From: a virus
Strand: one strand, 5' to 3'
DNA length: 64,000 nt
IMG/VR virus record: IMGVR_UViG_3300042453_001086
Coordinates: 96,001 to 160,000 of that record
In this document: positions 30,680-53,463 of the stretch, in pieces
Position numbering within the stretch: the stretch's first letter is position 1
Layout: every line of letters begins with the position of its first letter
Notes under the pieces: generated by a model
Databases searched by the model: none
The model's input: the letters and a program-made list of their open reading frames with translations, nothing else
Told to the model about the DNA's origin: nothing
Made by a program: the position numbers and the translations under genes

Positions 30680-30927
30680 GTGCTAGGATGGTGGGTCATG
30701 CAGTCGCCGCGGCCAGTGCCTTGCGAACCACGGCGGACATGCCAGGGCTGATGGTGCTGCGCCCCTTGCTGCCATGGGTCGGCAAGATCACATCAGTCTG
30801 CCAGGCGGGGTGATTCCAGATCTGATGCGATGCTGTCGTGCGCTTGAGCACAGCGCCGCTCGCTCTCAGATCTCGCTCTGCTTGCTTCCACTTGAGGGGT
30901 GATGGCATGGTGCTAGGATGATGGGTC
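30680..30927. repeat. 18-bp direct repeats flanking hicA
   Basis: GTGCTAGGATG(G/A)TGGGTC at 30680-30697 and 30910-30927, one mismatch. Confidence 0.8.
30696..30908 (-). CDS. hicA: HicA-family mRNA interferase (solo, 70 aa)
   Basis: LKRTTASHQIWNHP..VILPTH..TISPGM..VRK matches the HicA dsRBD-fold pattern; start reassigned to MPSPLK. Confidence 0.75.
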   Translation of the reverse strand: MPSPLKWKQAERDLRASGAVLKRTTASHQIWNHPAWQTDVILPTHGSKGRSTISPGMSAVVRKALAAATA

Positions 30928-30960
30928 GTCTGCAGGGGGTGCCCCCGTAGGGGGGGGGGG

Positions 30961-31158
30961 TCAGTGCTCAAACGTGGGGATCTTGGCGATTGCCTCATCA
31001 TGATGGGTCTCGGCGTACTGGGCGGCGAGCACAGAGGCGGGCAGTCCCCAGTGGATGAACTGAGAGGGGCGGCTGCCGTTCTTCAGTTGATCCGCCCTGC
31101 TGATCCATTTGATCTGGCGGGTCTCAAGGTCAGAGCACTGGGCGAGGGGGAAGCGCAT
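30961..31158 (-). CDS. Early-island hypothetical protein
   Basis: Preceded by a cassette promoter. Confidence 0.7.
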   Translation of the reverse strand: MRFPLAQCSDLETRQIKWISRADQLKNGSRPSQFIHWGLPASVLAAQYAETHHDEAIAKIPTFEH

Positions 31159-31204
31159 GGTAGGGGGGGGGTGTTGATTGATCTTAGTCTACAGGGTCAG
31201 CGCC

Positions 31205-31357
31205 TCAGCGCCCATCCCAGCAGACAGTCGCCCAACCGTCCCGCTCCATACGGCGGCGGTCGAAGTCGTCGGCATCCCAGCGGTCGTCGAAGTCCATGTC
31301 GAAGATCTCGCCAGGGGCGTCTTGAATCTCGGTGAAGCAGGTGTCGAAGTCGGTCAT
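31205..31357 (-). CDS. Small Asp-rich protein (50 aa, not in track)
   Basis: MTDFDTCFTEIQDAPGEIFDMDFDDRWDADDFDRRRMERDGWATVCWDGR after a cassette promoter. Confidence 0.65.
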   Translation of the reverse strand: MTDFDTCFTEIQDAPGEIFDMDFDDRWDADDFDRRRMERDGWATVCWDGR

Positions 31358-31400
31358 GGGTCGTTTCGTTTGATTGATCTTAGTCTACAGGGTCAGGGGG

Positions 31401-31550
31401 TCAGCGGCAGTCAGTCTCGGACACTTGGCACATTGTCACAGCGAGGCGGTCGGCGTGTGCCTTGGTGATCTGCAGACCAGCAGAGAGGGCGTTGCCACCA
31501 ACCCAGAGGCAGAGGGCGAGAGTGCCGAGGGGGAAGATCAGGCGGGTCAT
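31401..31550 (-). CDS. Small membrane/exported protein (49 aa, not in track)
   Basis: MTRLIFPLGTLALCLWVGGNAL... after a cassette promoter. Confidence 0.65.
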   Translation of the reverse strand: MTRLIFPLGTLALCLWVGGNALSAGLQITKAHADRLAVTMCQVSETDCR

Positions 31551-31627
31551 GGTCGGTTCGTTTCGATGCTGTTAGTCTACAGGGTCAGGGGTGGCGTTGA
31601 CGGTCGCCGCGGCCACCCTGCTGACTG

Positions 31628-31819
31628 TCACATCACATAGAGACCGTGGGCAGCATAGAGAGCGGGATAGTTGGTGCGCCAGTTGGCGAGGCGAGCCACC
31701 AGGGTCTCATCATCGGCACGGTGGTGAAGATCGATCAACCACTGGGGGGTGCTACCATGCTCTGCCTTGAACATGGCGAGCAGGGAAGCGATGGCACGGA
31801 TGCGAGCGGTAGCGGTCAT
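31628..31819 (-). CDS. Early-island hypothetical protein
   Basis: Cassette promoter and AAACGAAACGACCC leader upstream. Confidence 0.7.
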   Translation of the reverse strand: MTATARIRAIASLLAMFKAEHGSTPQWLIDLHHRADDETLVARLANWRTNYPALYAAHGLYVM

Positions 31820-31860
31820 GGGTCGTTTCGTTTGGTTGATGCTGTTAGTCTACAGGGTGC

Positions 31861-32055
31861 TCAGTTGCACCAGGCGGCAAGGTGTGCCACTTCGCCAGCC
31901 GTCTCCTCTAAGGTCGCCTCGGTCAGACCAGCCAGGCAGGCTTCCAGATCATCGGGGTCGATGCGGTCGATGTCACCATTGATCTCCCATGCCTGTGCCT
32001 CAGCGAGGGCGAGGCAGCGATCACGAAGCGAGAGGGTGAAGGTTTTGTTTTTCAT
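31861..32055 (-). CDS. Early-island hypothetical protein (probably leaderless)
   Basis: ATG 6 nt after TAGACT. Confidence 0.7.
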   Translation of the reverse strand: MKNKTFTLSLRDRCLALAEAQAWEINGDIDRIDPDDLEACLAGLTEATLEETAGEVAHLAAWCN

Positions 32056-32064
32056 GCTGTTAGT

Positions 32065-32289
32065 CTACAGGCAGACGGTCTCGTGGCGCTGCAGGCAGTG
32101 ACAGTTCACCCACTGTCCCAGCGAGCGGTCGCTGTTCCACATCAGCGACAGGATGGCACGACGGGACGCCTTGAGGCGATAGCGCACCCCATAGTAGCGT
32201 TGGAAGGTCACCCGAACAGTGCCCGTGATAGGATTGACGCTCATCTCATCGATAGCGGTGCTGCCGAAGGTGTTGATGGGGTAGCGCAT
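32065..32289 (-). CDS. KTSC-like small protein
   Basis: STAIDEMSVNP..VRVTF..RY..SLGQWVN pattern resembles the KTSC fold. Confidence 0.55.
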   Translation of the reverse strand: MRYPINTFGSTAIDEMSVNPITGTVRVTFQRYYGVRYRLKASRRAILSLMWNSDRSLGQWVNCHCLQRHETVCL

Positions 32290-32370
32290 TGCTTGTCTGT
32301 GGTTGATGCTGTTAGTCTACAGGGTCGGGATGGGGGATCGGGGGCAGCGTGTGCCACCCCCTCAACTGTC

Positions 32371-32799
32371 CTAGTAGTCGCTGAAGATGTAGACGTTACG
32401 GTAACCCTTCTCACAGGCAGTGAAATCGTAACGCAGGGAAGAATCGTAAGTTGCCTCCCAATCTACAACCAAAGCAGAGGGCACATCGTACAGTTCATCA
32501 TAATACTGCTCAGCGAAGTCTGCAGTCGAATCGTAGTTGCCACGGTAGCGTTCTTCGCAACCCTCAACATAGCAAACGTCGCCCATCTCTTCGATCAGGG
32601 CATCAACGGCATCGTAACCGATTGCCTCACCAGCGGTGCAATAGTCTTCATAATGTGCAACGAAATCGCTCTCGTTGTGGTTGTCGATGAACTCCAGCAT
32701 GTCATCCAGAGCATAGTTCTCATCGAGCAATTCGTCGATCTTCTCAACAGTAGCAGCAGCGAGAACTTCTTTGTAGTTGGCAGTCAAGGTGACGGACAT
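32371..32799 (-). CDS. ardA: ArdA-like antirestriction (DNA-mimic) protein
   Basis: Very acidic; C-terminal YRGNYDSTADFAEQYYDELYDVPSALVVDWEA matches the ArdA pattern. Confidence 0.7.
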   Translation of the reverse strand: MSVTLTANYKEVLAAATVEKIDELLDENYALDDMLEFIDNHNESDFVAHYEDYCTAGEAIGYDAVDALIEEMGDVCYVEGCEERYRGNYDSTADFAEQYYDELYDVPSALVVDWEATYDSSLRYDFTACEKGYRNVYIFSDY

Positions 32800-32878
32800 T
32801 TGCTTTGTTTGGTTGATGGAATCAGTCTACAGGGTCAGGGTGGGGTCTGTGGCGACCCCTGTGCCACTTGTCAGAGTG

Positions 32879-33043
32879 TCACATGCCGTTCATGAAATCG
32901 GCAAGGGCTTCGAGATACTGGGCTTTGGTCTCAAAGGTCCGACCGTAGATAGTACGGGGGTACTCTGCCTCAGGGGCGGGAGCGTTGCTGGGCTCCTTGC
33001 CCTGGGAGAGGATCTGTTGCACGTAGGGGTTGTTTTTGTTCAT
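32879..33043 (-). CDS. Hypothetical protein (54 aa, probably leaderless, not in track)
   Basis: MNKNNPYVQQILSQGKEPSNAP...; ATG 6 nt after TAGACT. Confidence 0.7.
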   Translation of the reverse strand: MNKNNPYVQQILSQGKEPSNAPAPEAEYPRTIYGRTFETKAQYLEALADFMNGM

Positions 33044-33105
33044 GCTGTTAGTCTACAGGGTCAGGGGTCAGGGTGCGAGGCGGTGTGTGCCACCTTGCCA
33101 ACTGG

Positions 33106-33342
33106 TCAGGGCAGCATCGCCAGACGCTCAGCGAGTCGCGCCTTCGCTTGGATCTCCTCAAGTGCAGGGATCTGTTCAATCCAGCGCATCTCACACTTAG
33201 AGTAATCGTAACCCTGAGATTCCAATTCTTTCATGTATGCCACAGCAGCGGAGTGATAATCGAACAGGCGCAGGGAATCGAAATCCTCACCTTCATAATC
33301 CCATCCGCCGATGACAGCGTAGGCGCGGGGAGTGTCGGTCAT
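33106..33342 (-). CDS. Early-island hypothetical protein
   Basis: YAVIGGWDYEGEDFDSLRLFD; cassette promoter upstream. Confidence 0.72.
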   Translation of the reverse strand: MTDTPRAYAVIGGWDYEGEDFDSLRLFDYHSAAVAYMKELESQGYDYSKCEMRWIEQIPALEEIQAKARLAERLAMLP

Positions 33343-33409
33343 GTCGTTTCGTTTGAACTGAGATCAGTATAGGGTGGAGAGGGGGCCGCGGCGACCCCCA
33401 GTGGACAGT

Positions 33410-33598
33410 TCAGAGATTGCCCATCAGAGCGGATGCTACGATCTCGCCAGCACCTGCCAGGTCATCCCGAACGATCAGGCGGAGCATCTCAGCACCCTCG
33501 GTGGACTGGTGGAGCATACGGACGTGCCCATCAGCAGCGTTTGGGCAGTTGCCGTGAACGATGGCGATAGCGAGGGCGGTTGCTTCGGTCTTGGTCAT
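33410..33598 (-). CDS. Early-island hypothetical protein
   Basis: Cassette promoter upstream. Confidence 0.65.
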   Translation of the reverse strand: MTKTEATALAIAIVHGNCPNAADGHVRMLHQSTEGAEMLRLIVRDDLAGAGEIVASALMGNL

Positions 33599-33695
33599 GT
33601 GGTTGTCTGAACTGAGATCAGTCTACAGGCAGGGGGTGGCCGCGGCGGGTGCTAGTGTGCCACCTTGGGTACTGGCCGCGGCCACCTAGACAAAC

Positions 33696-33722
33696 GCCCC
33701 CTAGGCGATTAACCTAGAGGGC
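33696..33722. terminator. Possible intrinsic terminator hairpin
   Basis: GCCCCCTAGG-cgattaa-CCTAGAGGGC downstream of the endonuclease gene. Confidence 0.4.
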
Positions 33723-33794
33723 GGGAGGGGAGGGAAGCACAGGCAGACAGCGAGTAGTATGGGTGAACTACTCGCGGCCGCCGAGTTTGTGTTA

Positions 33795-34331
33795 CTAACC
33801 CTCGATGATGTTAGTGATAGTTTCGATCATAATGTCGCTCATCTCGTCAACACTGAAACCGTCAACTTTACAATGCAGGTTGTTAACGCCCACCTGAACT
33901 TCACCCATCACACCAAACAGTCCCTGGTGTGCAATGTGCAAGATACGATGAATCGGATTGCCAGCAGTTACACCAGTGCCAGATGCAAACGTAACGTAAG
34001 TTGCAGTGGGATTGATAGCACGAACGATGAAATTGTTTTTGTACCAGCGTTCGATTGCGTTGCCTTTATCGTTTTGTTTCTTACTCTCAAAGCAGGCAAT
34101 CAGTTCACCTTTGTAGAACCAAACCCCACCATCAGGGGCACACGATCCGATGCCACCAGGGATCTGAGATTGATCGAGTTTGGATTGTACAATCAGATCA
34201 GGATAGGTGCTGCTGAGAATGTTTGCCACATGAAACATTGCCGATTTGGCGTTATCATCCATCGCCTTAGACTGCTCATCAAATGCAGTCGTGCCAGGTT
34301 GAATGCCGCCTTTGAATGTAGTGTGGTGCAT
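33795..34331 (-). CDS. EcoRI/MunI-fold type II restriction endonuclease-like protein (178 aa)
   Basis: PDGG...ESKKQ..GNAIERWYKN...TYVTFASG mirrors EcoRI PDGG...EAKHQ..GNAIERSHKN...PYVLFLEG; start reassigned to MHHTTF after the cassette promoter. Confidence 0.8.
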   Translation of the reverse strand: MHHTTFKGGIQPGTTAFDEQSKAMDDNAKSAMFHVANILSSTYPDLIVQSKLDQSQIPGGIGSCAPDGGVWFYKGELIACFESKKQNDKGNAIERWYKNNFIVRAINPTATYVTFASGTGVTAGNPIHRILHIAHQGLFGVMGEVQVGVNNLHCKVDGFSVDEMSDIMIETITNIIEG

Positions 34332-34400
34332 GTGATTTGTTTGATCTGAGAGTAATGTATCAGGGGTGGGGGAGCATTGCAACCCCCCTTGTGCCACTTC

Positions 34401-34586
34401 CTAAACTGTCACATCCTCCAGCAGTTCAGGATAGTATTGTGCTACCTCTTCATTTAGCTCTTCATCATTATACTTATCGTATCCCTCCATGAGATAATCG
34501 TAGCACAAACATGTCATGGTCTTAAGATCCATGTCATCCAACATTTGCTGGACAAGTTGATCCTGAAGAGTTTTGCGATCCATCAT
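34401..34586 (-). CDS. Hypothetical acidic protein
   Basis: ATGA-coupled to the upstream gene. Confidence 0.7.
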   Translation of the reverse strand: MMDRKTLQDQLVQQMLDDMDLKTMTCLCYDYLMEGYDKYNDEELNEEVAQYYPELLEDVTV

Positions 34587-34708
34587 TTGCGAAGGGGAGA
34601 GTTGTAGTAGGAACGAAACACCGAAATCACAATGATAGCGGTGGAGATGACACCAACCAAACCGAGGTAGGTTACAGCGTCACCAGTGAAAGTGTAGGAA
34701 TCAGGCAT
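34583..34708 (-). CDS. Small single-pass membrane protein (41 aa, not in track)
   Basis: MPDSYTFTGDAVTYLGLVGVISTAIIVISVFRSYYNSPLRK; coupled at both ends. Confidence 0.65.
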   Translation of the reverse strand: MPDSYTFTGDAVTYLGLVGVISTAIIVISVFRSYYNSPLRK

Positions 34709-34844
34709 CATCACGCATCTCAGTTAGGATTTCATGTAGCAGTTCAACATCGGTGCCCATCAGTTCACTCACCTCATCCCAATCATCATGGAACTCGATG
34801 AGAGAAATCAGACAATCAATTTGCTCGAAAGTGAGAGTTTGCAT
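34701..34844 (-). CDS. Small acidic protein
   Basis: Start reassigned to MQTLTFEQ. Confidence 0.65.
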   Translation of the reverse strand: MQTLTFEQIDCLISLIEFHDDWDEVSELMGTDVELLHEILTEMRDDA

Positions 34845-34851
34845 GTCAGAT

Positions 34852-35013
34852 TCAGGCAGCGACGACATCAGCAGGGGTGAGATCAATGTATGCTTCAACG
34901 CCAGCAATGTGCATAGATTGAACCATAATCCATGCCAGATTCTCGGGCACTTGAATCATACGCTCTTTACCATCTTTGGCGTCAGTGTAATACAAATCGC
35001 GGGTGTCAGTCAT
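34852..35013 (-). CDS. Hypothetical protein
   Basis: Start reassigned to MTDTRDLY after a cassette promoter. Confidence 0.65.
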   Translation of the reverse strand: MTDTRDLYYTDAKDGKERMIQVPENLAWIMVQSMHIAGVEAYIDLTPADVVAA

Positions 35014-35115
35014 TTGCTTTGTTTGTTTGACTCTGTTAGTATTGCACCAAATCAGGGGCAATGGGAGAACACTGTGCCAGTTCTCAAAGTGGCACAGGGT
35101 CACTTGACATCGATA

Positions 35116-40070: not shown

Positions 40071-41321
40071 TCATGCAATAATGCTCGTGGGGGGCACACC
40101 CTTCACAAAGATAGCATCAACAACGTTCTGCAGGCGTTTCTGAATCTGTGCGCCATAGTTACCGTAGATAGGCACAGTCACGAAACCAAACGGTTTGCGA
40201 TAGTTACCGATGTCACCAGCAGTGAGTTTGCCTTCCGCAATGTCACGCGCATCATCCACATTCATGCGGATTACACGACCAATGGTTTGTGCCATCTCCA
40301 CAATGTTGAGGTTACGAAGCAGGACACAATGCGTCAGACCAGGAACATTGATACCCTCAGACAGAATGCTGTAGTGAAACACCACAAACTTACGCGCAGG
40401 ATCTTTACCCCATGCGGTGAGAGTATCAAAGAATACCTCACGGTTGACCTTCTGTTTGTTGACATAGGCACCGTGCTTAGCAGTAATGTGCAGCACATCA
40501 TATCCACGCTCAGACAGTTCCTGAAGCATGGAAGTAGCAGCAACCATATTCCAAATGATTTTGCTGCTGGGTGCTGCTACCAGCACTTTCTGACCAGACT
40601 CAGCATCAAGATTGTCTACAATCTCCAGCACAGTGTTAGCGTCACAGTCAGCAGCGTTAGACTTGGTGCGAGCAACTGCGGGCTGTTCGTGAATCTGAAT
40701 CGAAGGAGGAATGATACTACCAGACTCAATCAGTTCCTGTGCAGGAGTGATCTCAATCACATCACCAAACACCAGTTTGTTATTCATGCCACGCCCCTTG
40801 GGATTCTTGGAGTGACGAGGAGTTGCAGTAAAGAAATAGCAGTTGTTTGCCATCTCAGATACCATAGCAGTCTTAGGAAAGAACTGCTTGCTGGTAGCAT
40901 TATGTGCCTCATCGAAGTAAGCTACATCGATGTCAATACCAGCATCAACAATACGATGCAGAGAATGATAGGTGGTGAAGATAAAGCAGGACTCACCAGC
41001 AGCACGAGCGGTGTTGTTGAACAGCGCAATCGTATCAGATTTGGTGGTGCTGAAGTGATGAGTTTCACCACTGTGAACGTGCATGATGTGAACGTTCTTG
41101 GTATCAATAATCTGCAGATATTCGTCACTCAGTTGGTTGCACAAAAGCAACCTAGGTGCTACCACAACAGCAGTCAAACCACGCTCAGAGGCATTCAGAA
41201 GACCCAGCAGGTGCAGGATTTGCTCAAGAGTCTTGCCAGCACCCGTAGGTTGAATCACAATGCCCTTACAGGCGTTCTGCATGGCAGCGATGGTACGCGG
41301 TTGGTGGGAGCGAAGTTTCAT
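40071..41321 (-). CDS. Superfamily 2 (DEAH, Res-subunit-like) helicase
   Basis: PTGAGKT, DEAH, TATP, LSEGINVP, QTIGRVIR; start reassigned to MKLRSHQ. Confidence 0.9.
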   Translation of the reverse strand: MKLRSHQPRTIAAMQNACKGIVIQPTGAGKTLEQILHLLGLLNASERGLTAVVVAPRLLLCNQLSDEYLQIIDTKNVHIMHVHSGETHHFSTTKSDTIALFNNTARAAGESCFIFTTYHSLHRIVDAGIDIDVAYFDEAHNATSKQFFPKTAMVSEMANNCYFFTATPRHSKNPKGRGMNNKLVFGDVIEITPAQELIESGSIIPPSIQIHEQPAVARTKSNAADCDANTVLEIVDNLDAESGQKVLVAAPSSKIIWNMVAATSMLQELSERGYDVLHITAKHGAYVNKQKVNREVFFDTLTAWGKDPARKFVVFHYSILSEGINVPGLTHCVLLRNLNIVEMAQTIGRVIRMNVDDARDIAEGKLTAGDIGNYRKPFGFVTVPIYGNYGAQIQKRLQNVVDAIFVKGVPPTSIIA

Positions 41322-41343
41322 GTCGTGTCGTTTCAACAAATAT

Positions 41344-41372
41344 AATATACAGCAAAAGGCGGGAGCCGTCAA
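41344..41372 (-). promoter_or_regulatory. Sigma70-type promoter TTGACG-17-TATATT within a terminator-like hairpin
   Basis: GGCGGG/CCCGCC stem followed by TTTT on the minus strand; -35 in the loop. Confidence 0.7.
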
Positions 41373-41402
41373 GACCCCCGCCCATTAGCGTTGCTTATGG
41401 AA

Positions 41403-42458
41403 TCATTTCATAAGAATAAACTCACCTTCTTGCACACCTTCTTGGTGATGATCTTGTGCAAGGAAAGCATGTTGACACTTAGGATTTTTCCAAGGATAGC
41501 AACCATTAGTAACCTTGTAGATAAACACTTTATCAAGTGCAGCCTCAAGATTAGCAAGTGCTACGGTGTGAACTTTCTCGCGTTTGACATCAAGAGATTC
41601 AATACGAGAGGGGAGAGCAACAGATGCTTGAATGTTCATGTAAGAATCGAGAGGAGTTTTTGCTGCCTCAGTAATCAACGGATTAGTACGAGAACCCCAG
41701 TTATCCATGTTGATGTAGTAGTTACGCACATCAGGATTGTTGAGTACGTTCTTCACATACTTATCAGTAGAGCGATTTACAAACTCTTCATACGTTTTCT
41801 CATTATGTGCAGTAAAGCGTTCCAGTTTCACAGTGGTATTACCACTAGTGTGAATGAAACTAATCATTTCTTTCACTAAACGACCCTGAACAGTCTTGCT
41901 GAGAGAGTTGTTAGCAATCAGACGAATCTCGTCTTCGATTTGCTGCTGGCAGGTGATTTCACCAGCGGAAACACCAAACTTGATGTGCTCAATCACTTCA
42001 TCTTCGTTGTTAAGAGTAGCGTGAAACACACGCTCATTATTCAATGCTTTAGCAAAACGTTTGCGAGCCCATTCGTTTTCACAACGAACAAAAACAAACA
42101 TATAACCAGAGATGCCAAGATAAGAACAAGCATCGTGGCGGTGTCCACCAGTAATGATGTCACCAGTATCAATATCAATATAAACAGGCGGTTGAGTGCA
42201 GTCAATACCGTTTTGTTCGATATCTTCTTTAATCAAACGCACTTTCTCGTGGTCGGTGCCAAGATAACGACCAATGTTGTTTTGTTTTACAACATCCTTC
42301 CAGAGACCAAACTTTTTCTCGATAATCTCAATACCAGGAATACCCTTGTCAGTTACAGGGAATGTCCAGTTTGCAGGATCCATCAACTTTTCATCAAAGT
42401 ATTGACAAACATATTGCAGTGCATCATGAATGTCTTGAATGTCAAAGATTGTTGCCAT
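41403..42458 (-). CDS. ParB/Sulfiredoxin-like N-terminal domain protein (351 aa)
   Basis: IEQNGI..PPVYID..IITGGHRHDA resembles the ParB-N GxxR motif. Confidence 0.6.
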   Translation of the reverse strand: MATIFDIQDIHDALQYVCQYFDEKLMDPANWTFPVTDKGIPGIEIIEKKFGLWKDVVKQNNIGRYLGTDHEKVRLIKEDIEQNGIDCTQPPVYIDIDTGDIITGGHRHDACSYLGISGYMFVFVRCENEWARKRFAKALNNERVFHATLNNEDEVIEHIKFGVSAGEITCQQQIEDEIRLIANNSLSKTVQGRLVKEMISFIHTSGNTTVKLERFTAHNEKTYEEFVNRSTDKYVKNVLNNPDVRNYYINMDNWGSRTNPLITEAAKTPLDSYMNIQASVALPSRIESLDVKREKVHTVALANLEAALDKVFIYKVTNGCYPWKNPKCQHAFLAQDHHQEGVQEGEFILMK

Positions 42459-43997: not shown

Positions 43998-44056
43998 ATT
44001 ATAGGGCATTCAGAGGGGTCTGTGCGACCCCCTGTGCCACTTTGCAAACTGGTCAG
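43998..44056 (-). promoter_or_regulatory. Thirteenth, isolated cassette promoter (TGTGCCAC-N8-CTGGTCAG, 29 bp spacer, TATAAT)
   Basis: Same geometry and GGGGTC/GACCCC hairpin as the copy at 32824-32883. Confidence 0.7.
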
Positions 44057-52412: not shown

Positions 52413-53252
52413 TTAGGAATACAACAAAATCTCGGTAGCGGGTTTAGCAGCGTATCCAGTACTGGTTTTCTTACGACGACCAGCAGTATATGTCACAGGA
52501 AATCTAGTAATGTTTAGGTCACCTTTCCTATCATCAAAAAATGTAGATCCATCACAACGGTTGCATAGAAGAACATGACCATCAATGCTTTTGGCATGTT
52601 CTATCAGTTCTTCAGTCTCTGTATCACCCCAGCTCGTACCATACTTAGTAAAACTATCACGATATGGTGGGTCAAAATAGTTTAAATCTCCAGTGGGGCA
52701 GTCTTTGTAATCACCACAATAGATCTCTACATTTTGCAACAACTCATGCCAAGCATATACCATTGCTTTATCATAGACTACATCTTTTTGATTCAATAGT
52801 CCTGCAGGAGTACCATATCTACCGTTAGTATTTTTATTGATCTGCCAGATGCCATTGAAACCTGTTTTCATCAGGAAATACAGTACTCCCGCTTCAAACT
52901 CTTTAGACCAAAACTTGTAATCATATGCATGAGTTTGACGAACTTCAAAAAAGTATTTCTTTCTATCTTCTTTAGACATAGGAATATACTTGCTCTGAAA
53001 AACATCTACAACATTGCAAAACTCATCTGGAGATTGTTTTACCGTTCGGTAAATATTTACAACACTTTCGTTGATATCATTGATATATGCCCGTTCGGGA
53101 TTATACTTCTGCATAACGTGCAGAAACATAGCACCACCACCAAAGAACGGTTCAGAATAACTGTTGACCGTTGATGGTAAATGTGGTGCATGGTATTTGA
53201 GCATTTTGGTTTTGCCACCTGCCCATATGAAAAGTGGTTTTAGTTTAGGCAT
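52413..53252 (-). CDS. Dam-family (D12 class, alpha group) N6-adenine DNA methyltransferase; target unknown
   Basis: WAGGK, EPFFGGGA (motif I), DIN, YFDPPY (motif IV); start MPKLKP overlaps the upstream stop. Confidence 0.9.
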   Translation of the reverse strand: MPKLKPLFIWAGGKTKMLKYHAPHLPSTVNSYSEPFFGGGAMFLHVMQKYNPERAYINDINESVVNIYRTVKQSPDEFCNVVDVFQSKYIPMSKEDRKKYFFEVRQTHAYDYKFWSKEFEAGVLYFLMKTGFNGIWQINKNTNGRYGTPAGLLNQKDVVYDKAMVYAWHELLQNVEIYCGDYKDCPTGDLNYFDPPYRDSFTKYGTSWGDTETEELIEHAKSIDGHVLLCNRCDGSTFFDDRKGDLNITRFPVTYTAGRRKKTSTGYAAKPATEILLYS

Positions 53253-53463
53253 CTTGACTGTCGCCATAAGTAGGTGGATGATACTTCAAATACTCAAAGA
53301 ATGTCAACTTCATTTCTTTTTGTGTCATACCGCAATGTTTAGCAGCTGCAGGAAGTGTCATTTTAGACTGAAACAGTCCTTCGTTTGCTTCTTTTACATT
53401 CTCTGGTGTAGTCTTTACAGGGATTTCGTATAAATCTACTTTATTGATTTTTAGAAGACTCAT
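53245..53463 (-). CDS. Conserved hypothetical protein
   Basis: KTTPENVKEANEGLF..MTLPAAAKHCGMT. Confidence 0.72.
   Translation of the reverse strand: MSLLKINKVDLYEIPVKTTPENVKEANEGLFQSKMTLPAAAKHCGMTQKEMKLTFFEYLKYHPPTYGDSQDA

Follow-up and report, generated by a model that had tools for sequence, protein, structure and literature searches.

The window, the whole stretch of DNA analysed here (64,000 nucleotides), covers positions 96,001-160,000 of a 189,882-bp viral genome of 40% GC, which we take to be that of a T4-like cyanophage because matches to Kyanoviridae are seen for its helicase and Kyano_Gp96, among other genes. The features of interest are:

33695-33723, minus strand: intrinsic terminator-like hairpin (12-bp stem and T tail), 70 nt past the nuclease stop
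33795-34331, minus strand: predicted EcoRI-fold PD-(D/E)xK endonuclease, 178 aa, ATG at 34331, PHROG 2400
34332-34414, minus strand: upstream cassette, putative early promoter, with a layout repeated before neighbouring small genes
52413-53267, minus strand: D12-class N6-adenine methyltransferase of predicted AATT specificity, motifs EPFFGGG and DPPY intact

The 178-aa protein contains, in order, PDGG (residues 66-69), ESKKQ (82-86), GNAIERWYKN (90-99) and YVTFASG (112-118). The original prediction, made from the sequence alone, had read these as collinear with PDGG, EAKHQ, GNAIERSHKN and YVLFLEG of EcoRI, and a profile alignment agrees (hhalign E 9.7e-6; the EcoRI reference for the alignment and residue map was taken from a plasmid record). 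EcoRI is reached only via a family profile and fold search: queried singly, the sequence gave nothing useful in Pfam (no match at E up to 1), NCBIfam, PADLOC or PDB, and PHROG 2400 is annotated as 'unknown' function. With a profile of 63 relatives, EcoRI was the only sensible match in PDB (E 0.0013), while the EcoRI family PF02963 matches 10 of the 63 weakly (best E 1.6e-4). An overlapping 196-aa frame on the plus strand (33759-34349) was dismissed as the antisense shadow of the nuclease gene.

An EcoRI/MunI fold had also been claimed, and the AlphaFold model of the protein (pLDDT 88.7) recovers EcoRI as the sole clear Foldseek match (E 8e-7) and, with VIA-align, at Z 14.3 (rmsd 2.4, 151 residues aligned), compared with 9.7 for the next match and 7.9 for MunI; the MunI family (PF11407) has an Atlas feature score of 0.90 with 134 shared features, which we treat as a lead only. 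EcoRI cleaves with D91, E111 and K113 and reads the inner AATT with Q115, N141, A142, E144 and R145. The profile alignment places D67, E82 and K84 on the catalytic residues and Q86, N91, A92, E94 and R95 on the recognition residues, so that the PD..ExK core and AATT-reading motif are complete, as had been proposed. All eight are conserved at 92-100% over 144 family sequences (98-100% for D67, E82, K84, Q86, N91 and R95; 92% for E94). The role of EcoRI A142 in reading the inner AATT has been described (PMC4081073). Most of the EcoRI insert between ExK and GNAIER was rightly thought to be missing: of 125 members scored, 124 have a 3-residue spacer between the glutamine and GNAIER, where EcoRI has 24, so the 21-residue deletion in the arm is real and family-wide. 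No conserved arginine was found in the family at the positions of R200 and R203, the guanine-reading arginines of EcoRI, where the alignment is unsure.

By fold and residues, the phage nuclease is related to EcoRI (type IIP, G^AATTC; PF02963; PDB 1ERI, 1CKQ, 2OXV), sharing the D/E/K triad, the Q115 equivalent, the GNAIER segment and the strand order up to YVxF, but it fails strict PF02963 membership by profile and arm. It is also shorter (178 versus 277 aa), is carried by lytic phages, appears to recognize a 4-bp site, and is accompanied by a D12 (Dam-like) methylase unlike the M.EcoRI family.

Searches found ~215 close and ~325 distant relatives, and all those with known context are viral; neither a search of 401 cyanobacterial genomes nor a GTDB pattern scan yielded a member. 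The gene is under purifying selection, with dN/dS of 0.10-0.16 against relatives at 75-85% identity. Cultured members, 45-50% identical, are S-RIM2 SWTG_00030 and S-BM1 SBM1_00185, both labeled 'hypothetical' in GenBank, and S-CREM2 gp11 (OR473000.1), labeled 'restriction endonuclease EcoRI'. The S-CREM2 paper is silent on this gene and proposes no target or partner (PMC10665884).

As the original prediction had noted, a cassette precedes the nuclease, made up of a pseudo-palindrome (34414-34390), a GC hairpin (34388-34368), a -10-like TACATT (34359-34354) and an A/C-rich leader, with the layout of about ten cassettes across 30.9-35.1 kb. We infer that it is an early promoter, and the terminator-like hairpin behind the gene suggests a monocistronic unit. 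The wider array comprises about ten to twelve copies (window 30900-35100 and 43998-44056) of a pseudo-palindrome, GC-rich spacer, TAGACT -10 and short leader, with a copy before each gene in a run of short genes that includes the nuclease, and lies in a region of 52% GC within the 40% GC genome. It also contains an ORF with a HicA-like toxin domain (30696-31001, minus strand; Pfam E 3.5e-5, below cut-off) and, 1 kb downstream of the nuclease, a gene for an ArdA-like antirestriction protein (32371-32799, minus strand; PHROG 36653 E 4e-38, Pfam ArdA E 5e-5).

No methylase adjoins the nuclease in the window, in line with the earlier claim. The methylase it had named at 52413-53252 lies 18 kb from the nuclease and belongs to a clade found directly behind the nuclease in relatives. 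Its frame is open and encodes 279 aa if translated from ATG 53252, or 284 aa with the start at 53267, with matches to PF02086 (E 3e-29) and TIGR00571 (above cut-off). Among 81 nuclease loci, 64 contain a D12 adenine methylase, directly downstream in 47, with about one gene between in 15 and upstream in two. Searching 50,697 phage records, we found the nuclease in 65 (S-RIM2 isolates, S-BM1 and S-CREM2); the methylase clade occurs in the same records apart from S-CREM2, 64 in all, while the neighbouring helicase is present in 419. On sequence grounds the nuclease is thus not an orphan, and its dedicated methylase partner is predicted to be the 52413-53267 product. Since the window's copy nests in the methylase tree with those of L298 and L025, where the nuclease adjoins the methylase, the 18-kb split appears to be derived. 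The other D12 methylase of the genome (genome positions 40543-41433) was rejected as partner: it is a core Dam-like enzyme, present in non-carriers too, only 27% identical to the 52413-53267 product and far outside the linked clade.

Some further observations concern the methylase and its surroundings. The gene between nuclease and methylase in 15 loci encodes 330-350 aa (PHROG 2558, with a weak ParB-like match; L081:20620-21675, which is S-RIM2 SWTG_00031, and equivalents) and is absent from some S-RIM2 isolates. Bacterial homologues that would name the methylase target were not found, the best genome matches being mostly at 35% identity or lower. The closest non-viral homologues lie on 30-55-kb Klebsiella and Citrobacter plasmids (41-43% identity; L209:7974-8891), and the one Klebsiella plasmid inspected has no annotated nuclease next to the methylase homologue.

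The AATT tetramer occurs 186 times in the genome compared with 1,156 expected (ratio 0.16), so that five in six expected sites are gone; 79 sites are in the window. It is the second most avoided 4-mer, behind CCGG. Synonymous codon shuffling gave 1,131 sites compared with 139 observed, ruling out codon or amino-acid bias as the source. The original prediction had proposed protection by site avoidance and possibly methylation. AATT is indeed depleted, and methylation now seems to be probably required in this phage beyond avoidance, because avoidance alone could not protect a genome that still has 186 sites (one per 1,021 bp); pure avoidance occurs only in other lineages. Other palindromes are also scarce genome-wide: CCGG is at 0 versus 145 expected, GGCC at a ratio of 0.21, and about twenty 6-bp palindromes, such as GGTACC, GCATGC and AGCGCT, are at zero. 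CCGG is near zero in most control cyanophages as well. With so many palindromes avoided, it is the controls that decide the AATT question.

These controls uphold the claimed AATT target, as genome-wide avoidance follows the nuclease gene across phages. The complete 193-kb relative G006, ~80% identical in nucleotide sequence over 104 kb, has neither gene and an AATT ratio of 0.86, compared with 0.16 here. Similarly, 18 cultured Kyanoviridae without the pair have ratios of 0.77-1.02 (40 kb each), compared with 0.27 and 0.24 in the pair carriers S-RIM2 and S-BM1. Carriers (n=80) have a median ratio of 0.40 and non-carriers (n=28) one of 0.90, with a p value of 2e-13 that is overstated because the sets are not independent. 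On a quick helicase tree the nuclease needs at least eight gains or losses, and carriers differ from neighbouring non-carriers at 0.16 versus 0.63-0.75, 0.00 versus 0.83, 0.52 versus 0.92, 0.27 versus 1.00, 0.13 versus 0.82 and 0.65 versus 0.88.

Not every carrier has lost its sites: 17 of the 80 carrier loci have ratios of at least 0.63, within the non-carrier range (for example, L065 at 0.95 and L059 at 0.86), which could reflect a gene acquired only recently, methylation that works efficiently or a change in the site recognized. S-CREM2, with the nuclease and a different methylase, has a ratio of 0.65 against a background in which palindromes are generally avoided; the absence of AAATTT there (0 versus 4.8) is uninformative, as nine other 6-mers are equally absent. 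Two apparent counter-examples were set aside: G012 (methylase, AATT 0.14, no nuclease found) has contig ends flanking the missing nuclease region, and the contig of L088 (AATT 0.09) stops before the nuclease gene.

Avoidance and methylase might instead answer a host-encoded AATT enzyme, with the EcoRI-like gene as a passenger, a nickase or a non-cutting AATT binder. Host-driven avoidance does seem strong in these phages, given the many palindromes avoided without obvious targeting by the phage itself (the CCGG, GGCC and 6-mer losses above), and the ArdA-like gene would suit such a history. However, S-RIM2, S-BM1 and eight of the 18 control phages are recorded on the same host, WH7803, and differ exactly by gene content. 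Six sampled cyanobacterial genomes, not known hosts, do not avoid AATT (0.88-1.12, one per 120-400 bp), and no member of the nuclease family turned up in the 401 cyanobacterial genomes or the GTDB scan. The 98-100% conservation of the catalytic residues also argues against a passenger, as does absolute AATT avoidance where the nuclease is present and the methylase missing. We therefore consider a host enzyme very unlikely. The case indicates that a phage's own enzyme, rather than its host's, can cause site avoidance in the phage genome.

This absolute avoidance is seen in G001 and G003, contigs of one lineage (63% and 41% complete) that carry the nuclease and in which no D12 methylase was detected: of 303 AATT sites expected in 100.5 kb and 194 in 60.5 kb, none is present. 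Phages with neither gene show no avoidance, those with both show partial avoidance, and those with the nuclease and no methylase found show total avoidance, the pattern that cleavage at AATT by the nuclease and protection by the methylase would produce. All 16 flanking contexts of AATT are empty in G001 and G003, pointing to a 4-bp site. In the genome studied here, all 16 are depleted, at ratios from 0.02 (TAATTA), 0.04 (CAATTG) and 0.05 (GAATTC) to 0.35 (AAATTT). Such variation by flank might suggest an enzyme that has a 6-bp or degenerate site (GAATTC, CAATTG or RAATTY) and shows star activity, and EcoRI itself relaxes to NAATTN (PMC4081073). We find this improbable: every context is depleted here and empty in the other lineage, GAATTC and CAATTG cannot both be the sole site, and RAATTY conflicts with AAATTT, the least depleted context of all. 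The enzyme appears to recognize the bare tetramer AATT and not a longer sequence built around it.

Methylases of the clade that includes the 52413-53267 product are also found behind a divergent EcoRI-like subgroup of ~170 aa and paired with an unrelated, unannotated ~288-aa family. In the latter, invariant E, D, E and K stand in a PD-(D/E)xK-like arrangement and the gene lies upstream of the methylase, as in:

L346:5634-6509, plus strand: member of the ~288-aa family, upstream of a methylase of the clade

Other such loci are L309, L310, L311, L317-L319, L322, L323, L328, L329, L341 and L344; the family was sought in the present genome and is absent. AATT ratios are 0.01 for L346, 0.14-0.18 for L318, L319, L328 and L329, and up to 0.83 in others, and the ~288-aa protein is probably an unrelated AATT nuclease. 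Near-identical methylases pair with either nuclease (L029 versus L309, L039 versus L322); this exchange beside an unchanged methylase suggests a common site, and both families would then target it.

We therefore think it likely that this phage carries a type II restriction-modification pair, made up of a predicted AATT-cutting nuclease and its cognate methylase. Expressed from the cassette promoter early in infection, the nuclease would dimerize like EcoRI, read the four inner A:T pairs with Q86 and N91/A92/E94/R95, and cut unmethylated AATT, probably as ^AATT; it would ignore the outer base pair, as we propose, because it lacks the EcoRI arm and conserved equivalents of the guanine-reading arginines. 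The 52413-53267 methylase would add m6A to the 186 sites that remain. New replicas would be protected incompletely, which would select for loss of AATT, and lineages without the methylase would survive only by removing every site. The substrate would be any unmethylated DNA in the infected cell, from the host chromosome, co-infecting phages or both.

The AATT specificity itself is familiar from bacteria, where MluCI, Tsp509I and Sse9I cut this site; we compare them with the phage nuclease by its inferred target only, and unlike them the phage family was not found in the bacterial genomes searched. Phage-borne type II restriction nucleases are described as rare (PMC4081073), and literature searches found no paper assigning an AATT target or a nuclease-methylase pair in cyanophages. 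Virus-borne restriction-modification is already known from giant viruses, and the cyanophage pair would work like a type II system; new here is the pairing of one methylase clade with the unrelated ~288-aa nuclease as well. Chloroviruses and marseilleviruses likewise encode short-site nucleases with methylases directed at non-self DNA (PMC7019647; 10.1101/2019.12.21.884833), but in eukaryotic hosts and with other enzyme families. In chloroviruses the nuclease is packaged and always lies next to the methylase, whereas the two cyanophage genes are 18 kb apart and site avoidance backs them up. T4 endonucleases II and IV (denA, denB) similarly degrade host DNA and spare phage DNA; T4 discriminates by hydroxymethylcytosine, while the cyanophage would do so by site methylation and site loss.

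As to purpose, we lean towards the host chromosome as the main target of the predicted nuclease, for nucleotide salvage and shut-off in place of denA/denB. Cyanomyoviruses lack denA, denB and ndd, an undescribed route of host-DNA degradation has been suggested, and the question has been posed as open since 2010 (PMC2984593). Cyanophage infection does degrade host DNA, including infection by the non-carrier S-TIM4 (PMC6708340). Because S-TIM4 degrades it without the gene, and most cultured cyanomyoviruses lack the gene (present in 65 of ~419 records, three named phages), the nuclease is not a general host-degradation enzyme and would be only one of several solutions.

Co-infecting phages as the main target seem to us less probable, if a serious possibility. 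With the same pair and site, the value could be purely anti-phage, through exclusion of unmethylated co-infecting phages, or the genes could be a selfish cassette that spreads when rival genomes are cut and have to be repaired from the carrier, with host cutting incidental; we give either version the same limited credence. The patchy, mobile distribution on the helicase tree would fit, as would nucleases swapped beside near-identical methylases, as in an arms race, the purging of other 4-mers by other cyanophages, and the abundance of targets in non-carrier cyanophages (one AATT every 130-290 bp). There is also a precedent in the marseillevirus system, which spares host DNA and is proposed to act on competitors (10.1101/2019.12.21.884833). 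Against this, cyanobacterial DNA like that of the host is AATT-rich and occupies the same compartment as phage DNA, and so would also be cut, and in chloroviruses, where the enzymes are believed to break down host chromatin, exclusion has been put to the test and degradation of the host is the role favoured (PMC7019647). This alternative differs from our preferred explanation in purpose only.

Returning to the host chromosome as the favoured target, S-RIM2 and S-BM1 on Synechococcus WH7803, compared with the non-carriers S-RIM8 or S-P4, offer a cultured test case. Avoidance caused by a phage's own enzyme would change how site avoidance in phages is read, and a natural minimal EcoRI of 178 aa offers a way to tell which parts of EcoRI are needed to read the outer pair.

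More tentatively, and short of calling it probable, we suggest that T4-like cyanophages have an exchangeable slot near the helicase for four-base restriction enzymes, with at least two unrelated AATT families and probably TTAA, GATC, GTAC or TGCA enzymes elsewhere, in which self is told from non-self along a continuum from methylation to site erasure, and which may provide an undescribed route of host-DNA degradation. If so, it would be a driver of cyanophage genome composition. Lineage-specific losses of other 4-mers hint at such interchangeable systems (loci L127-L176 and L205-L206). Ratios are 0.00 for TTAA in S-RIM14, 0.00 for GTAC in S-RIM44, 0.15 and 0.34 for GATC in S-RIM8 and S-IOM18, and 0.00 for GGCC and 0.17 for CATG in S-CAM7; GTAC is at 0.04 in G006, TGCA at 0.08 in G008 and GATC at 0.00 in L099. 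S-RIM8 also has a second D12 methylase and a 198-aa gene of unknown function just before the helicase.
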